Shown: positions 2,614-11,113 of the stretch, piece after piece
Position numbering within the stretch: the stretch's first letter is position 1
How the letters are laid out: every line of letters starts with the position of its first letter
Assembly (NCBI GenBank): GCA_046757025.1
Contig: JBHHXN010000171.1
Coordinates: 1 to 11,113 of the forward strand
Reading direction: 5' to 3'
Length of the DNA: 11,113 bases
From: a bacterium
GTDB taxonomy: Bacteria > Zhuqueibacterota > Zhuqueibacteria > Oceanimicrobiales > Oceanimicrobiaceae
Translations under genes and position numbers: made by a program
Notes under the pieces: model-generated
What the model saw: the letters and a program-made list of their open reading frames with translations, nothing else
Database searches by the model: none
Told to the model about the DNA's origin: nothing

Positions 2614-2728
2614 TCTTTTCTCCTCAAAATAACCTCCCTTATATTCTCAAAGCACTTTTGTCCTTATTTCCTTAAAAACAATTAATTATGCTAACATCTG
2701 GTTAAGCAAATACTTTGATTGTCGTATC

Positions 2729-2745
2729 TGGCACACAAGTTGAAT
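2729..2745 (+). promoter_or_regulatory. Putative sigma54 (-24/-12) promoter
   Basis: TGGCAC-ACAAG-TTGAAT versus consensus TGGCAC-N5-TTGCW: perfect -24 box, correct spacing, GA instead of GC at -12. A bEBP gene and a UAS-like palindrome lie upstream. Confidence 0.6.
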
Positions 2746-2775
2746 GTAATTTCTTCAAACAAGACAAATGGAATA

Positions 2776-3141
2776 ATGCAAAAACCTTATGTGATAATTT
2801 CTGGCCCAACTATCACTTCAGATGAAGAACTGTTTCACGAACTGAATAAATATATGACGACTGTGAAATGCCTGGAGAGTAGTGAGATTGAAACTTTGCT
2901 GGCAACCCACAAAGTTGACATTCTCCTGTTTGAAATAACAACTGATTCAAAAGTCGATTTGAACATTATTAAAAACATTAGAAATAAATTTTCGATGGTT
3001 GAGATAATTTTGATCGATGCGATTGGCGATCGCAATGTCCTTGCCCGCGCCTTTGCTTCAGGCGCCAGAGACGCCTTTCCGATTGCGTATAATCGCGCTT
3101 TGCTTCTGGAAAGAATACAAGCGCTTTTACGGCGGATTTAA
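2776..3141 (+). CDS. Stand-alone atypical (pseudo-)receiver domain protein; start reassigned to ATG 2776 (121 aa)
   Basis: CheY-fold pattern VDILLFEI...IIKNIR...EIILIDA.GD....RAF.SGARD.F...Y...LLLERIQALLRR. The phosphoacceptor Asp position is Glu, and the acidic pair, T/S and KP are replaced. The TTG start at 2719 would lie upstream of the sigma54 box. Confidence 0.8.
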   Translation: MQKPYVIISGPTITSDEELFHELNKYMTTVKCLESSEIETLLATHKVDILLFEITTDSKVDLNIIKNIRNKFSMVEIILIDAIGDRNVLARAFASGARDAFPIAYNRALLLERIQALLRRI

Positions 3142-3498: not shown

Positions 3499-3536
3499 GT
3501 GTTTATTAATTAAACCAAACTTTGAAGGACGACATG

Positions 3537-4670
3537 ATGAAAGTAAATAAATCTATTTATTGTGGACTAATGCTGTATCTGCTTTTGATCTTGCCAGAGA
3601 ATCTGTTTTCTCAACAAATCACCATAACCTCTGATGATATGCTGAATATGATTGGCTCCGCTCAAATCTTACGGGAAGATACGCGGTTCAGTATTCCGGT
3701 AAATGTTGGTTCACCCGGACCTGCTCAAACGTGGGATTTTCGAACAACAACCCTGGTCAATCCTTTTTTGGTAGTTTTTGAGTATTTAGCGCCGCAGTCA
3801 ACGCTTTCCAGCGCTACCTATCCTGAATCCAACCTGGTTGAGAAGATCTCAGACCCTGAGAGGCCGGGGTTTGAAGCGTACAATTACTTAAAAGTGACGA
3901 ACTCGCATTTTATAGATTTAGGAGATAGTACTAAAATGATCTCACCGATGGATACCTCATTTGTCTATTTTCAAAACGATACCCTTGCCCCGCTGCCACT
4001 GGCCTTTAACAACACCTGGATGAGCACGGAACGTGATACCACGGGTCTTTATCCTGCTACCGCCAATATTTCCATCGATACAACGATAAATGTGGTGGAT
4101 GCCTGGGGTACGGTACGCTTACCCATGGGTGATTTTCAATGCCTGCGATTGCGCCAGGATGTAAAGGTCATCAATCAGACTATCTTCAATGGGTCGATTA
4201 TTTCCACTGGCATTGATACGTATATTCAATACAATTGGCTGGCGAAAGGGATTAGTCTGGTGGCCCGAATCCAAAGCCAGAACGGAGAAACCAATCCGAA
4301 TTTCACGAACGCGCAAGGATTTGGACGGCTCGATTCAATGAGTACCTCTCCTGCAACCGGCGTGGAGCAAGCCGATGATATGCAGGTGCCGGCGCAATTC
4401 GAGCTGTTTCAGAATTATCCCAACCCATTTAATCCCCAAACAACCATTCGTTTCAGGTTGAAAGCATCGTTGGAAGTGACTTTGGAGGTTTACAACATCC
4501 AGGGCCAGTTGGTGCGCTCACTGATTGCCGGAAAACTTAGCGCCGGCAGCCACAGCGTGGTGTGGGGTGGCCGGGATGAGCAGACAAAGCTGGTTCCAAG
4601 CGGTTTGTACATCACCCGCATGCAAGCGGGGGAATTCGTGCAGCATAGTAAAATGCTGCTGATCAAGTGA
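3537..4670 (+). CDS. Secreted protein of unknown function with T9SS type A / FlgD-Ig-like C-terminal sorting domain
   Basis: AAGGA SD (3525-3529) favours ATG 3537 (3534 also possible). Signal peptide ...ILPENLFS|Q. Beta-rich body with QITIT, TWDF and DAWGTVRLPMG motifs. CTD FELFQNYPNPFNPQT...SGLY...KMLLIK. Confidence 0.85.
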   Translation: MKVNKSIYCGLMLYLLLILPENLFSQQITITSDDMLNMIGSAQILREDTRFSIPVNVGSPGPAQTWDFRTTTLVNPFLVVFEYLAPQSTLSSATYPESNLVEKISDPERPGFEAYNYLKVTNSHFIDLGDSTKMISPMDTSFVYFQNDTLAPLPLAFNNTWMSTERDTTGLYPATANISIDTTINVVDAWGTVRLPMGDFQCLRLRQDVKVINQTIFNGSIISTGIDTYIQYNWLAKGISLVARIQSQNGETNPNFTNAQGFGRLDSMSTSPATGVEQADDMQVPAQFELFQNYPNPFNPQTTIRFRLKASLEVTLEVYNIQGQLVRSLIAGKLSAGSHSVVWGGRDEQTKLVPSGLYITRMQAGEFVQHSKMLLIK

Positions 4671-5053: not shown

Positions 5054-8000
5054 ATGAGTACTGCTAAGCGAATAATATCGAAAAATTGGATCGCTTCCAC
5101 TACTAATCCAGAACAAAAAACAAACGTATCATTTCTGCACTATGTTGTTTTCACCTGTGTTTATCTCGTACTTATTAGTCCAGTATTCTGGACATACGAT
5201 GTTTTTGCACAGTACGAGGGCTGGGTTCAAAAGGGTCCTTCGACCATCTTTATAATTGAAGATCAGGCGATCACTGGCATTGGAACCCAGATAGCCGTCG
5301 GTGAATCCGGACATGTGATGAAAACAACCGATGGCGGAGAGAACTGGACAAATTTAGTAAGCGGGACGACGACAGATTTGCATGCGATTTCTATTCCTGT
5401 CGGCGATATTGGTTATGTTGTTGGCAACTTGGGTAAAATTATCTGCACGACTAGTGCTGGTATGAATTGGTTCGATCTCAATAGCGGAACAGCAAAGAAT
5501 CTGTACGGCGTTTTTTTTACCGACGATAGTACTGGTACCGCTGTGGGGGAGAATGGCACCATAATCAAGACCACTGACTGGGGAACGACCTGGAATCCAC
5601 AAAACAGCGGTATCAACAAAATTCTCTATGATGTCTATGCAATAGACCAGCAGAAGGCTGTGGCGGTTGGCGAAGGCGGGATTATCCTGCGCACCGAAAA
5701 TGGCGGAGCGGACTGGTCACAACAGGTAAGCGGAACCACGGAAGATCTGATGGCAGTTGACGGTCACGGCGACAATAAATTGATCGTTTCGGGAAATAAA
5801 GGTGTCATATTGCATTCAATTTCCGCCGGAATGACCTGGACGCCTCGCGTAAGCGGAACCCTCGTACACCTGCCCGATGTGATCTTGTTGGATGAACCCT
5901 TCGCTGCTGTCATAGGACATGATGGCACCATTCTCCGAACAAAGGATGGCGGGATCACCTGGGTGCCTCAGGAGAGCGGAACAACCGAAAATCTTTTGTC
6001 CGTTGCCTTTTATGATAAAAACCATGGCAGCGCTGCGGGTGAAAACGGCACCGTACTGTACACAAGAACCGGGGGGAAAACACTGCCAATCATATTTGTC
6101 GATAATTCCAAGCCAAACGGCAACGGTCGTTTTACCAATCCTTTTGATAATTTGGCCGACGCGCTGAATGCAGCGGATTCAACACGCGCGGTGTGGGTCT
6201 CCAAAGGTTCAGGAGTCTATGCGGGCGGAATGACATTGAAGGAGCGGCAAACCGTGCTGGGACAAGGCGTCGATTTGAAATATGGCAACGAGATTCTGAT
6301 TCCTGCTGCAACGGCGCCAATTATTACCAATCAAAATGGAGATGGTGTCAGACTCGGGAAAAAAACAATGCTGGAAGGTTTCCAGATAGATAATTGCAAC
6401 GGCGCAGGAATTTTTGTAGGTCCTGATGTTGTGGATACTGTTCTTGTTGCCAATACAACCATCACCCGTGGAAAAAGAGGAATAGAAATTGACGGCAGTT
6501 CCGGGAAATTAATTTTTTCAAACGTGGACATTGTAAATACGGACGGCCCAAGTTTTCGCCTGTTGGATTCCGGTGGTTTGGGCACAAACAGCGCTGACGT
6601 CACTTTTACCGGCCAAATTACGCAAAGCACGTCTGCGGCAACAGTTGAGATCCAGGATCACCGGGGCACGGTTAACTTCACTGCCGGCTCGACAATCAAC
6701 GCCAGCAACGGCAACGGTTTGCAATTCAACAATGCTGACGGAAAATATTCTTTCATCGGGCTGAGCGTACTTAACAAAGGCCACGGCAGGATCGAAATCA
6801 TCGGCGGTTCGTCTGGCACCTTCACCTTTGACGACTTGACGATTACGGACTCTCGCGACGTGGGCATCCGGATCGATGGCAGCGACGGCGTCTTCGAATT
6901 TGGCAAAGTAAGCATTTCCAACACAGATAGCGCCGCCGTTTCCATTCGCAACTCCAGTGCAGACGTCACCTTCAAGAAGCTGGATATCGACAGCGCACTC
7001 GTCGGTGTTAAAATCGACAGTCTCGCCGGTAAGTTCGCCATCACCGGAGATGGCACACTTGGTTCGGGCGGTAGGATTCAGGATATGATTAAAAGCGGTA
7101 TGACTTTGAACAATGTTGGTATAGCCGCACTCAAAGATATGTTTTATCAGAATTTTGGCGGCAATGCTATAGAAACGTTGACTGTTGAGAATTTAGAGCT
7201 GGAAAATATCAGTGTTACCGGCGCCCAAAATGGAATCTACATTGATAACAAAACAAGAAAACCTGGCACAATTATAATTAATGGCGGAAGTATTAATGAC
7301 ACAGTTAACGACGGCTTATTTGTGCGAAATATGAACTTATTTGCGGACGGTGTCATCTTCGCCGATAGCAAATCTATTCGCGGTGACGCGATGGATTATG
7401 ATTTTAAGGGTGCGACGGAGGCAATAGTAGAGAACTGTAAATTTAAGGAAGTTAACATAAACTCTCTCTTGATCGAATTGAGTGAAAACCCTGGTCTAGT
7501 AGATAGCAGCGAAACGAACATCCTGTCCAACCATAAGAATTCAAATATGAAAGCCGGAAGCGCAACATTGCTGATTGATAACAATATCATGACCGCTCAA
7601 GGCCCTGAAGCCATAAAAGTGCAGGTCGGAGGTGTTGCAACTGCGAACAGTGTGGAAATAACCAATAATACCGTAATTGCTGACAGCGGTAATGGTATTG
7701 TTATACAAACAACCGATTCCAGTTCGGCTTTGGTCACTTTTGCAAACAACGACGTTTCTGCGGCTGCCAACGATTTCGTGCTCGTTCAGGATAGCAGCAG
7801 CACGTTCCAGTTAGCCGGTTTTGCCGGCGGCGATGCAGCGGCGGTGGCGGCGTTCATTCAGGACAACAACGTGGGCACGCCCTCGGTGGCAGTGAACGGC
7901 AGCATCAGCGCGGACCCAACCACGTCGGTTGAAGAATCTGATCCTGCTGTGATTCCGAGTGCCTTTCGTTTGGAGCAGAACTACCCGAACCCGTTCAATC

Positions 8001-8236
8001 CGTCCACCACAATTCAGTTTGACCTGCCGCGACAATCCGGGGTCACGCTGAGCATTTACAACCTCAAAGGGCAGTTGGTGCGCACTTTGGTTGACGGGAA
8101 ATTCACCGCCGGCAGCCACAAAGTGGTTTGGGATGGCCGGGATGAGCGGGCAAAGCTGGTTCCAAGCGGATTGTATATAAGCCAATTGACCGCGGGTGCA
8201 TTTGTTAAACAGCTCAAGATGCTGTTGATCAAATAA
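5054..8236 (+). CDS. Large secreted mosaic protein: YCF48/BNR (Asp-box) beta-propeller + right-handed beta-helix + T9SS/FlgD-type CTD
   Basis: GAGGA SD; long signal peptide ...YDVFA|Q53. Seven BNR-like repeats (KTTDGGENW, TTSAGMNW, KTTDWGTTW, RTENGGADW, HSISAGMTW, RTKDGGITW, YTRTGG) in ~5210-6076. Beta-helix cap IFVDNS...NPFDNLADAL, then G/N/I-rich coils. CTD FRLEQNYPNPFNPST...WDGRD...KMLLIK. Confidence 0.88.
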   Translation: MSTAKRIISKNWIASTTNPEQKTNVSFLHYVVFTCVYLVLISPVFWTYDVFAQYEGWVQKGPSTIFIIEDQAITGIGTQIAVGESGHVMKTTDGGENWTNLVSGTTTDLHAISIPVGDIGYVVGNLGKIICTTSAGMNWFDLNSGTAKNLYGVFFTDDSTGTAVGENGTIIKTTDWGTTWNPQNSGINKILYDVYAIDQQKAVAVGEGGIILRTENGGADWSQQVSGTTEDLMAVDGHGDNKLIVSGNKGVILHSISAGMTWTPRVSGTLVHLPDVILLDEPFAAVIGHDGTILRTKDGGITWVPQESGTTENLLSVAFYDKNHGSAAGENGTVLYTRTGGKTLPIIFVDNSKPNGNGRFTNPFDNLADALNAADSTRAVWVSKGSGVYAGGMTLKERQTVLGQGVDLKYGNEILIPAATAPIITNQNGDGVRLGKKTMLEGFQIDNCNGAGIFVGPDVVDTVLVANTTITRGKRGIEIDGSSGKLIFSNVDIVNTDGPSFRLLDSGGLGTNSADVTFTGQITQSTSAATVEIQDHRGTVNFTAGSTINASNGNGLQFNNADGKYSFIGLSVLNKGHGRIEIIGGSSGTFTFDDLTITDSRDVGIRIDGSDGVFEFGKVSISNTDSAAVSIRNSSADVTFKKLDIDSALVGVKIDSLAGKFAITGDGTLGSGGRIQDMIKSGMTLNNVGIAALKDMFYQNFGGNAIETLTVENLELENISVTGAQNGIYIDNKTRKPGTIIINGGSINDTVNDGLFVRNMNLFADGVIFADSKSIRGDAMDYDFKGATEAIVENCKFKEVNINSLLIELSENPGLVDSSETNILSNHKNSNMKAGSATLLIDNNIMTAQGPEAIKVQVGGVATANSVEITNNTVIADSGNGIVIQTTDSSSALVTFANNDVSAAANDFVLVQDSSSTFQLAGFAGGDAAAVAAFIQDNNVGTPSVAVNGSISADPTTSVEESDPAVIPSAFRLEQNYPNPFNPSTTIQFDLPRQSGVTLSIYNLKGQLVRTLVDGKFTAGSHKVVWDGRDERAKLVPSGLYISQLTAGAFVKQLKMLLIK

Positions 8237-8292: not shown

Positions 8293-9801
8293 GTGGGAAA
8301 AATAAACGTTTCTTTTCACCTGATGAGTCTTCTCATCATAGGATGTCTGGGAAGCTCACTCCTGGCTCAAACGCGTCGTATGCAAGTCAGCCCGGACGTG
8401 CCACGTGTGCTCGATTATCAGGGCATCCTGACCAACCCCGATGGCGAACCTTACAACGGCGCCTTCAATCTTACTTTTACCATTATCAACACAAAGAACG
8501 ATTCGGTGCTATTTACAGAAACCGTGCAGAATCTCGAAGTGACGGATGGACTGGTGCACCACCTCGTTGGCAGTGTTGCCGGAGACCTTGACCCGTTCAT
8601 CTTTCAGAAAGCCACGGCACTGCGGATAAACGTGAACGGCGAGACCCTCTCCCCTGATGTGGTTATTGCGCCCGCACCCGTGGCTTTGGTGGCGCTCTAT
8701 GCCGATTCACTGACGTCGCCTTTGCCACAAGGCTCATTCACCAACGGACTGAGAGTATCCAGTAGTGACACGGCCATCGTCGCATACAGTGCCGCCGGCC
8801 CGGCCATCGTCGGGATTCAAGGCGAGTGGAGCGGAGGCCAGAGCCACATTGAAGGCGGCTCAAACCTTGCGAAGGTAGTTACAGACAATGAGCCTTTCGG
8901 CGCTGTATACTTCAGTAATAGCGGCACCGGCGTTGGCGGCTTCAGCAACACTGGCACAGGTGTTTCTGGCAGCAGTGGCACCGGCACCGGCGTTTCTGGC
9001 GACAGCGGCACTGGCACCGGCATCGGTGGCACTAGCAGCAGTGGTAACGGTGTTTCTGGTGAAAGCTTTAGCGGTAATGGTGTGTATGGAAAAAGTACAA
9101 CTGGCCTGGCGGGCAAGTTCGATGGCAACGTGGAAATCAATGGTGATTTGAATATCAATGGCGGCAAAATCAGAACCGACAGCGACGGCGAGATTTATGC
9201 GCATAGCTTTCATACAGTAAACGATGCTGGCGTCACCACTTCCGGTATCGATACCGATGGCAAGGCAAACTTGAAGTCTGTCACCTCTCCGGAGGGGTTG
9301 ACCGTTCCTGCCGATGGCGGCGGGGAAAATTGGTATTGCAATACCGGGATATTCCTTACGGACAAAGGCAGTTGGAACAGCACGACGGGCGATTTTCACA
9401 CCAATGGGAATTTTGGTGTAAACGGCACCAAGAACGCTGTGGTACTCACCATCAGTTATGGCACACGCAAACTCTATGCAGACGAATCCGCTGAGGTCAG
9501 CTTTTTCGACCGGGGCCGGGGACAACTGGTCAACGGCGAAGTCAGCATCGAGCTCGATCCCATGTTTCTCGAAACCGTCACCATTGACAATGAACATCCC
9601 ATGCTGGTGCAGGTCACCCTCACCGCAGACTGCAATGGGGTGTTTGTCTCAAATCAGACGGCAACGAGCTTCACGGTAAAGGAACTCATGGGCGGCAAAT
9701 CCAGCGCCACTTTCAACTGGGAAGTGGCTGCCAAACGCAAAGGTTACGAGTCCGTGCGCATGGAAGAATTTGAATCTTTAACCACAGCGAACAGGAGGTG
9801 A
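8293..9801 (+). CDS. Secreted trimeric fibre/adhesin-like protein (YQG N-terminal domain, Gly-rich repeats, phage tail-fibre-like C-terminal domain); no T9SS CTD
   Basis: GAGGAGG SD (8281-8287) with GTG start; signal peptide ...SSLLA|Q. N-domain VPRVLDYQGILTNPDG...LTFTI...VNGE.L.P...APVAL. Six 10-aa GxGVxG repeats, then a GKFDGNVEINGDL stalk motif. C-domain GTKNAV...YGTRKLYA.ES.E..F.D.G...LDP.FLETV...F.WEV.AKRKGYE. Confidence 0.75.
   Translation: MGKINVSFHLMSLLIIGCLGSSLLAQTRRMQVSPDVPRVLDYQGILTNPDGEPYNGAFNLTFTIINTKNDSVLFTETVQNLEVTDGLVHHLVGSVAGDLDPFIFQKATALRINVNGETLSPDVVIAPAPVALVALYADSLTSPLPQGSFTNGLRVSSSDTAIVAYSAAGPAIVGIQGEWSGGQSHIEGGSNLAKVVTDNEPFGAVYFSNSGTGVGGFSNTGTGVSGSSGTGTGVSGDSGTGTGIGGTSSSGNGVSGESFSGNGVYGKSTTGLAGKFDGNVEINGDLNINGGKIRTDSDGEIYAHSFHTVNDAGVTTSGIDTDGKANLKSVTSPEGLTVPADGGGENWYCNTGIFLTDKGSWNSTTGDFHTNGNFGVNGTKNAVVLTISYGTRKLYADESAEVSFFDRGRGQLVNGEVSIELDPMFLETVTIDNEHPMLVQVTLTADCNGVFVSNQTATSFTVKELMGGKSSATFNWEVAAKRKGYESVRMEEFESLTTANRR
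8914..9093 (+). repeat. Six tandem 30-bp / 10-aa repeats (S-x-x-G-[TN]-G-[VI]-x-G-x) in the fibre gene
   Basis: SNSGTGVGGF, SNTGTGVSGS, SGTGTGVSGD, SGTGTGIGGT, SSSGNGVSGE, SFSGNGVYGK. DNA units recur, e.g. GGCACCGGCGTT and GTTTCTGG. Confidence 0.9.
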
Positions 9802-9806
9802 AGATC

Positions 9807-10376
9807 GTGCCTATCCGACAAAACTTTTCGACCAGAATTATATTGATGTTACTTTTTGCATTGAGCGTTGGCTCGCATCGATTATATAGCCAAGCAAGTT
9901 TAAATTATCAAATTAAGGCTTCTACCATCAGCAGCGGGGCAGAACAAAAACAAACAACCGCAAGCTGGCAAGCCACGAGTTCAGTGGGCCAATGCACTTC
10001 CAGTCCGCAGTTAAAAGGCACGCAATATTTCATGCAATCCGGATTTAACCCTATTGTCAAGGGACTGCAGATGGTCGTCACAGTCAATACCCCAGAAGCG
10101 GAAACAAAACCGACGGTCTATCGCATGTACCAGAATTATCCCAATCCATTCAATCCGACCACGACCATTCAATTCGATCTGCCAAATCGATCAAAGGTAA
10201 CCCTCAAGATTTATAACGTATTGGGAGCCGAAGTGGCCACATTAATTGACAAAGAGATGGATGCTGGAGAATACAAGTTTGATTTTGATGCCCACGGTTT
10301 CCCCAGTGGGGTGTTTTTTTTTCGGATTCAGGCCGAGGGATTTGTAAAATCGAGGAAACTTTTGCTATTAAAATGA
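9807..10376 (+). CDS. Small T9SS-CTD protein (signal peptide + ~60-aa Ser/Thr/Gln-rich segment + CTD), putative adaptor for the upstream fibre; start reassigned to GTG 9807
   Basis: AGGAGG (9793-9798), formed by the fibre's last codons, overlaps GTG 9798 but is 8 nt from the in-frame GTG 9807. Signal peptide ...HRLYS|Q. CTD YQNYPNPFNPTT...SGVFFFRI...KLLLLK. Confidence 0.82.
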   Translation: MPIRQNFSTRIILMLLFALSVGSHRLYSQASLNYQIKASTISSGAEQKQTTASWQATSSVGQCTSSPQLKGTQYFMQSGFNPIVKGLQMVVTVNTPEAETKPTVYRMYQNYPNPFNPTTTIQFDLPNRSKVTLKIYNVLGAEVATLIDKEMDAGEYKFDFDAHGFPSGVFFFRIQAEGFVKSRKLLLLK

Positions 10377-10389
10377 AAGGAAAAATTTC

Positions 10390-11073
10390 ATGAGAAAAAT
10401 AACTGCTTGTTTAATTGCGCTCTCTACAATCATTGTTTTTAACTGCAAAAATGCCAAATCCGGAAACAGTGCTTCGTCAAACCTGAAGCGCTATGGCCTG
10501 AAAGAGGGTTACATCCAGTATTCCATCAAAGGCGACATGATGAGTGGCACCCAGGAAATCTGCTTCGACCGTTACGGTGCCAGAGAGGTGGAGATTAAAA
10601 ATATGGAAGTAAAAATTATGGGCATGAGTCAGAAAACCAAAACCGCCACGTACACCGATTTTAGTGAAGGTGGTACAATTTATACTGTGGACTATTCAAC
10701 CGATCCGCCGACCGGCACCAAAACCGTCAACCCGATGATCAAGTCGTTCGAAGGCAAAGACTTGCAGGAAGTCGGTAAGGATATGCTGGTGCAGATGGGT
10801 GGCAGGATAATCGGTAAAGGGAAAGTGCTTGGCAAGGAATGTGATATTTGGGAAGTCAAAAATATGGGCACAAAAGTCTGGGTCTGGAATTGGATAACCC
10901 TGAAGACCGAGATCCTGATGGGTATGAAAATGATAATTGAAGCCACGAAAATTTTGGAGAAATGTGACAAAAAGAAGCTGGTGAAGCCAAATATCAAGTA
11001 TAAAGACATGAGCAATGTGATGAAAAGTATGAAAGGTCTGGACGCTTTGAAAAAGCGATTCCAGAAAAAATGA
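10390..11073 (+). CDS. Lipoprotein of unknown function (beta-rich, possibly DUF4412/LolA-like fold)
   Basis: AAAGGA SD; lipoprotein signal MRKITACLIALSTIIVFN-C19. Motifs KRY..K.G.I.Y, FDRYGARE and G...VLGKEC..W...WVW..ITLK. The fold assignment is inference. Confidence 0.7.
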   Translation: MRKITACLIALSTIIVFNCKNAKSGNSASSNLKRYGLKEGYIQYSIKGDMMSGTQEICFDRYGAREVEIKNMEVKIMGMSQKTKTATYTDFSEGGTIYTVDYSTDPPTGTKTVNPMIKSFEGKDLQEVGKDMLVQMGGRIIGKGKVLGKECDIWEVKNMGTKVWVWNWITLKTEILMGMKMIIEATKILEKCDKKKLVKPNIKYKDMSNVMKSMKGLDALKKRFQKK

Positions 11074-11113
11074 TTTCAACGTCTCATCCCAAGTTTTTTT
11101 TTCAGGATGACTA

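Follow-up and report, generated by a model that had tools for sequence, protein, structure and literature searches.

A three-repeat module encoded beside CTD-less fibres is a candidate fibre-docking adaptor with a possible role in T9SS export

The DNA analysed here (the window, 11,113 nt, which is the entire contig C171 of a 5.96-Mb genome that is 94.8% complete) carries a secreted, phage-like fibre gene followed by a gene for a small partner protein, and the two appear to encode a fibre and the adaptor by which it is mounted on the cell surface. The fibre is without a T9SS C-terminal domain (CTD), and the partner consists of a signal peptide, a module of three short repeats, a linker and such a CTD (Table 1). 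Judged from sequence, the module is likely to be a general fibre-docking adaptor, binding in a 1:3 ratio, with T9SS piggybacking being the use that one lineage makes of it. We consider it quite probable that the module docks and anchors the fibre, and give about an even chance to the whole chain of events, in which the module would grip the fibre base, the CTD would export the complex via SprA and the trimmed adaptor would then serve as anchor.

Table 1. Features of the fibre and partner genes in the window
Feature	Positions	Strand	Description
Fibre gene	8293..9801	+	502 aa, Sec signal peptide, without CTD
YQG N-terminal domain	8395..8685	+	MAT-N-like; NF053851 E=1.3e-7, 31.6 bits, cut-off 60
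Shaft	8914..9102	+	six 10-residue GxG(V/I)xG repeats, Gly at residues 211-261
C-terminal tip domain	9394..9777	+	common to phage tail proteins and fibres of other lineages
Shine-Dalgarno sequence of partner	9793..9799	+	AGGAGGT, within the last fibre codons, 7 nt before GTG 9807
Partner (putative adaptor) gene	9807..10376	+	189 aa: signal peptide, module, linker, CTD
Three-repeat module (putative docking module)	9891..10046	+	about 52 aa, period of about 19 aa
T9SS type A C-terminal domain	10119..10373	+	TIGR04183 38.7 bits, PF18962 40 bits

The fibre gene starts at GTG 8293 behind a Shine-Dalgarno sequence of its own (GAGGAGG). That of the partner is built from the last codons of the fibre, as the original prediction had it, and the two genes would be translationally coupled through this element. 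For the partner the likeliest start is GTG 9807 and not GTG 9798, because the AGGAGGT motif is correctly spaced for the former while the latter would overlap it, and because the same layout of fibre stop, short spacer and start codon (there an ATG) is seen in a homologous locus, L001. An assembly split of a single gene was considered as the origin of the pair and rejected, as the stop is kept in L001 and no fusion of fibre and module was found.

The absence of a CTD, which the original prediction had also singled out, is peculiar to the fibre among the four signal-peptidase-I proteins of the window. The ORFs at 3522-4670 and 5054-8236 and the partner all pass the T9SS type A CTD models (TIGR04183 scores of 35.4, 29.4 and 38.7 bits, respectively, against a cut-off of 23), and the fibre matches no CTD model and no Pfam model in searches with the Pfam and NCBIfam collections. 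With a signal peptide (called by eye, as was that of the fibre) and a CTD over the cut-off, the partner has the features of a T9SS type A substrate.

The other genes of the window may be described briefly. The two further CTD-bearing ORFs look like ordinary T9SS cargo, one (3522-4670, +) encoding a 382-aa protein of no clear family and the other (5054-8236, +) a YCF48/BNR propeller with a beta-helix-like region. Upstream of this cluster of secreted proteins lie a GAF and sigma-54 activator (154-1677, +) and a receiver domain that stands alone (2719-3141, +), together with a nucleotidyltransferase and HEPN pair of the MNT-HEPN toxin-antitoxin type (1693-2518, -). L057 and L061 have a similar activator upstream of their fibres. 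Beyond the partner is a lipoprotein-like ORF (10390-11073, +), which is conserved 3' of the partner in L001 and is followed by a hairpin with a T-run at about 11096-11110.

The N-terminal YQG domain of the fibre, which we propose as the docking site for the partner module, is predicted to be a seven-stranded beta-sandwich (pLDDT 86). A wide fold search of the PDB with this model gave no clear structural relative (best Z 7.2), and Foldseek searches of the PDB and BFVD gave no match at E<=0.001. Against T9SS CTD-like folds it reached Z 6.1-6.6, the highest being the mirolase CTD, values which are under the noise line of 8; the idea of the YQG domain as a cryptic N-terminal CTD, derived from this model, is thus a lead only. 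The shaft that follows would form a trimeric beta-roll, and from its repeats and from homology the fibre is expected to be a homotrimer. The C-terminus was predicted to carry a domain other than a CTD, and this is borne out by its match to phage tail proteins: the tip domain matches the phrog_6616 tail protein (E=7.9e-16) and has an Atlas TM of 0.89 with a phage tail spike cluster. No Peptidase_S74 domain was found at the C-terminus of the window fibre (no Pfam match); PF13884 is present on other YQG fibres, and the paralogues of the fibre have varied tips behind the same N-domain. Searches of phages, plasmids and IMG/VR gave no match at the sensitivity used that would indicate a phage or plasmid origin, and sequence searches of the PDB with the module, N-domain and fibre profiles gave nothing significant.

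Relatives of these domains occur in other settings as well. A group of Bacteroidota fibres (P0072-P0120) has the same tip domain behind a different N-domain, often with PF26696 (PTL_trimer), and these may use a different anchor. In the cytochrome c maturation (ccm) operon of the window's own genome (L007, G000:C58:12585-13097, -) a 170-aa ORF has a YQG/MAT-N-like domain fused to a CcmD-family segment (TIGR04391 over the cut-off), and short YQG ORFs of 160-180 aa that are similar to it are found in other genomes of the phylum. Tandem arrays of two to five YQG fibres are also seen (L124, L095, L082, L198, L199). Behind the array there is often just one module gene, and one adaptor may therefore serve several fibres.

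The partner had been described beforehand as having almost no cargo, with about 60 residues between signal peptide and linker, and this short stretch proves to be a discrete conserved family. At E<=0.001 a profile search picks up 10,007 representatives of clusters formed at 50% identity, and no Pfam or NCBIfam model covers the module above its cut-off. The profile is similar to itself at offsets of 19 and 38 (z 3.75, p=0.004, 2,000 column shuffles), from which we take the module to be made of three repeats; the same period was recovered from a largely separate alignment of 206 copies taken from the representative search (p=0.001). When folded alone the module is predicted poorly (pLDDT 40-67, with two tentative hairpins) and the CTD well (above 90). 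That the module might be a piece of the YQG domain was considered and discarded (hhalign probability 0.8%), and an Atlas search with the module gave leads that were all under 0.9.

The association of fibre and module is seen within the window's own genome and well beyond it. In this genome an iterated HMM finds the module in 5 of 36,480 stop-to-stop ORFs, and each of the five is located downstream of a fibre that shares its contig and strand; three adjoin it (C171, C99 and C353), one is separated from it by a gap of 630 nt (C83) and one by four genes (C147). Only 3 of the 185 CTD-bearing ORFs carry the module, which, with the five of five that follow a fibre, argues for a pairing beyond chance. 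Among 151 genomes of the same phylum the YQG profile has 237 matches in 96 genomes and the module profile 148 matches in 77, and comparison of the two match tables places the module in 73 of the 96 YQG-positive genomes as against 4 of the 55 YQG-negative ones. Since the genomes are kin, we give these co-occurrences, and those of the loci below, as counts, without a statistical test.

The neighbourhood survey called for by the original prediction was carried out on loci from the same set, taking one long fibre per genome among the matches listed (150 of 237), which gave 67 picked loci, 60 of them examined. A module lies within the stretch examined at 48 of the 60, on the downstream side of the fibre in 43 and on the upstream side in 5, with one gene intervening in 2 of these; of the 12 loci without a module 6 run into a contig edge and 1 seems to be frameshifted. 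When the HMM was trained on half of these modules at a time, 47 of the 48 were recovered by the model trained on the other half, the two models having a four-sequence seed in common. Outside the training set, the module is near 53 of 74 other fibres of 250 aa or more among the matches listed. In the opposite direction, a fibre among the matches listed lies within 8.5 kb of 52 of 94 held-out module matches, and an examination of 20 of the remaining 42, chosen in favour of upstream room, revealed a YQG fibre at 14, a 5'-truncated fibre at 2 and none at 4. The module is also present in 24 of 201 genomes of a second phylum (that of G151), where 20 module loci, each the best match of its genome, comprise 15 with a YQG fibre, 2 with a truncated fibre, 2 with a fragment or remnant and 1 with none. 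Metagenomes give a looser picture: 23 of 41 loci found via the shared tip domain show a YQG domain, and a module gene lies beside it in only 8 of the 23, being absent despite kilobases of flank from L123, L133, L135, L153, L154, L159 and L160. Either fibre and module do not always go together or divergent modules escape the HMM. A contig scan with a single fibre query yielded 2 loci.

The two partners are on separate polypeptides in the proteins examined. Among 90 complete fibres in the loci examined none has a CTD or a module in cis, the same is true of 182 further YQG proteins, and none of the 150 best module proteins has a YQG domain, so the natural fusions of YQG domain and module that had been suggested as a check did not come to light. 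The module proteins themselves vary greatly in how they end. In the loci examined a CTD is present on 76 of the 83 module ORFs that are complete, and in 53 it lies within 30 residues of the module. The C-termini of the best 150 module proteins, sorted by simple motif rules, comprise 43 CTDs, 43 xLPL tails, 18 dockerin-like segments, 8 transmembrane (TM) segments, 1 IFxDxFE motif and 37 that are other or partial, and many of these proteins have two or three tandem copies of the module. In metagenomes the tails include YLPLV in L120 and L125, a TM segment with basic residues in L129, a CTD in L131 and other C-termini in L128, L137, L138 and L140; these we take to be sorting signals of the Chloroflexota, Planctomycetota and Verrucomicrobiota types. 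A module protein in L064 has a PEP-CTERM-like C-terminus.

Some module proteins are considerably larger. P0133-P0138, P0153, P0157 and similar proteins are xLPL-tailed, with two internal tandem modules beside OmpL47-type domains, and are possibly multi-fibre scaffolds. Two longer module proteins of the window's own genome (G000:C83:1-1231, -, and C147:1-907, -), which are cut by contig ends, have by eye cohesin-like and dockerin-like segments, and these too are possible scaffolds for the display of fibres.

The module also varies together with the base of the fibre. In a mirror-tree comparison of 66 adjacent pairs the fibre N-domain correlates with the module at rho 0.51, as against 0.24 for the N-domain with the partner CTD and 0.17 for the module with its own CTD; the first exceeds the second by 0.27 (subsampling range 0.15-0.37), with the strongest signal coming from the C-terminal half of the N-domain. 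This excess could also arise if CTDs were exchanged or made uniform within genomes, and the pairs, being kin, are not independent. At the level of residues, MI-APC on the same 66 pairs was not above shuffles (maximum z 4.6, null mean 4.6).

The host has much of what T9SS export would call for. In this genome SprA, PorV-family proteins and PorU score above their cut-offs, in line with the expectation of a T9SS. Of the motor and ring components (GldK-N, or PorK-N), whose lack the original prediction had named as counting against it, GldK gave a partial match below the cut-off, and GldM and GldN gave no match in the 94.8% complete genome, the GldN control matching nowhere either. With 17 PorV-family matches over the cut-off and 185 CTD ORFs, yet no match to GldM or GldN, the genome possibly has a T9SS with a different energiser. 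A secretin is also present and would provide another possible export route.

Taken with the machinery of the host, these data suggest the following sequence of events. Fibre and partner would both cross the inner membrane via Sec, and the fibre would trimerise as MAT and phage fibres do. The module, poorly folded by itself, would fold onto the three YQG domains, each repeat of about 19 residues gripping one N-domain of the predicted trimer, so that there would be one adaptor per trimer. PorV and SprA might then draw the complex outward by its CTD with the base leading, which is the least certain step, and PorU, going by T9SS biology, would remove the CTD and link the remaining residues, some 65, to a surface glycolipid. 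With its base fixed in this way the fibre would point its tip outward as an adhesin. In lineages without a T9SS the same module would be fused to their own sorting tails. The original prediction, that the small protein binds the N-terminal YQG domain of the fibre and lends it a T9SS signal in trans, agrees with the co-occurrence, the want of a CTD in cis, the covariation of module and N-domain and the presence of SprA, PorV and PorU. Its restriction to the T9SS leaves too much out, because this module also occurs beside the same fibres with non-T9SS tails and carries many other C-termini; docking and anchoring would therefore be what the module does in general, with T9SS export as a lineage-specific addition.

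Whether the fibre travels with its adaptor or only meets it at the surface is the question on which the principal alternative turns. The T9SS might export the adaptor alone, with the fibre leaving by a secretin/T2SS-like route or by means of a signal that its YQG domain itself supplies, and being captured outside, an account that we rate as rather unlikely while giving it some weight. It sits well with the non-T9SS tails borne by modules beside the same fibres, with the secretin, with fibres that have no adjoining module and with the weak, sub-noise likeness of the YQG sandwich to T9SS CTDs noted above. The case for piggyback export is weakened further by Bdellovibrio, which displays MAT fibres and is not, to our knowledge, known to have a T9SS. 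On the other hand, two proteins that are coupled and exported together would be expected to meet first in the periplasm, and no dedicated export gene lies beside the pairs among the immediate neighbours in the loci read.

Two further accounts, both of which we think improbable, do away with lasting attachment or with binding altogether. The threefold repeat of the module, its poor fold alone and the tight coupling of the two genes would also suit a transient template for folding or trimerisation of the fibre base, which is released after secretion and leaves no lasting anchor; however, the consistent fusion of the module to retention-type C-termini (CTD, TM, dockerin-like and, in L064, PEP-CTERM-like) and its two or three tandem copies on large surface proteins fit display better than chaperoning. 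Alternatively, the two genes might simply be inherited together without their products binding each other, the module having some other function, such as attachment to a surface polymer or a role as a target of glycosylation. The lack of a residue-level covariation signal and the existence of module genes without fibres and fibres without modules are compatible with such linkage, but the genes stay neighbours whichever comes first (module downstream in 43 loci and upstream in 5), in two phyla and with several types of anchor, and the module tracks the fibre N-domain better than it tracks its own CTD. Docking of the fibre base by the module remains our preferred reading.

Such an arrangement has parallels in cohesin-dockerin scaffolds, which use a small module to attach a functional protein to a partner that is anchored separately, and in the adaptor proteins of phage tail fibres, which bridge trimeric fibres to a base, although the module and the YQG domain differ from them in having no sequence match to any PDB chain. 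The fibre itself resembles the MAT fibres of Bdellovibrio bacteriovorus, which have a related N-domain, a signal peptide and a mosaic shaft and, like the YQG fibres, bear phage-like variable tips in S74 and non-S74 forms; 67 of 69 aligned YQG relatives match NF053851 at E<=0.001. The window fibre differs in falling under the cut-off of that model, of which it covers about 60 of 162 positions, and in having a dedicated adjoining partner gene and a T9SS-bearing host. Passages of Caulton et al. 2024 (PMC10769870) report that Bdellovibrio displays these fibres on its surface, state that how they are held on the cell is open, and suggest that the MAT N-domain would presumably bind an unidentified surface element.

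The partner likewise resembles type A cargo of the T9SS, with its signal peptide and type A CTD in a host with SprA, PorV and PorU. It differs from such cargo in having a passenger of only about 65 residues, in its proposed role as the carrier of an untagged trimer and in coming from a host in which the motor parts GldM and GldN were not found. Substrates of this system are described, in part of the text of Lauber et al. 2024 (PMC10994853), as leaving CTD-first with PorV, and, in part of a review (PMC13721041), as undergoing CTD cleavage and then surface attachment.

A further likeness is to PamT (NF058579), the predicted tip pilin of the CPR Pam pilus, whose model the module matches at positions 7-80 (E=7.5e-7), as do 28 of 50 module members at E<=0.05. 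It differs in scoring 28.8 bits against a cut-off of 240 and in showing no match to the truncated Ig pilin domain. According to passages of a preprint (PMC13278184) a tail fibre-like gene consistently adjoins the pam operon, and those passages give no role for the PamT N-terminus and draw no link between PamT and the fibre; we would suggest that a trimeric fibre docks there. The fibre and the export tag are of known kinds, and the adaptor was not found described, nor was the pair of fibre and adaptor, in a literature search that had subscription papers mostly outside its reach. A CASP16 paper (PMC12750041) is, judged by passages from it, unrelated.

At somewhat below even confidence, we tentatively propose that the module, as a pseudo-threefold peptide, and the YQG domain of a homotrimeric fibre base are a widely shared plug-and-socket pair that is mounted on the display systems of different lineages, and with the same reserve that these mounts may include the T9SS CTD, xLPL tails, TM or dockerin-like anchors and the PamT of CPR pili. 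The pair is a testable candidate both for the attachment of MAT-type fibres and for the T9SS export of a substrate without a CTD. T9SS export has been described as needing a CTD on the substrate, and here a trimer without a tag would borrow that of the adaptor. The module also links these fibres to the CPR Pam pilus at its predicted tip. If the proposal is true, the plug-and-socket pair would supply the missing anchor of the MAT fibres and predict a trimeric adhesin at the tip of the Pam pilus, and the module would offer a small, portable tag for the display of trimeric proteins.
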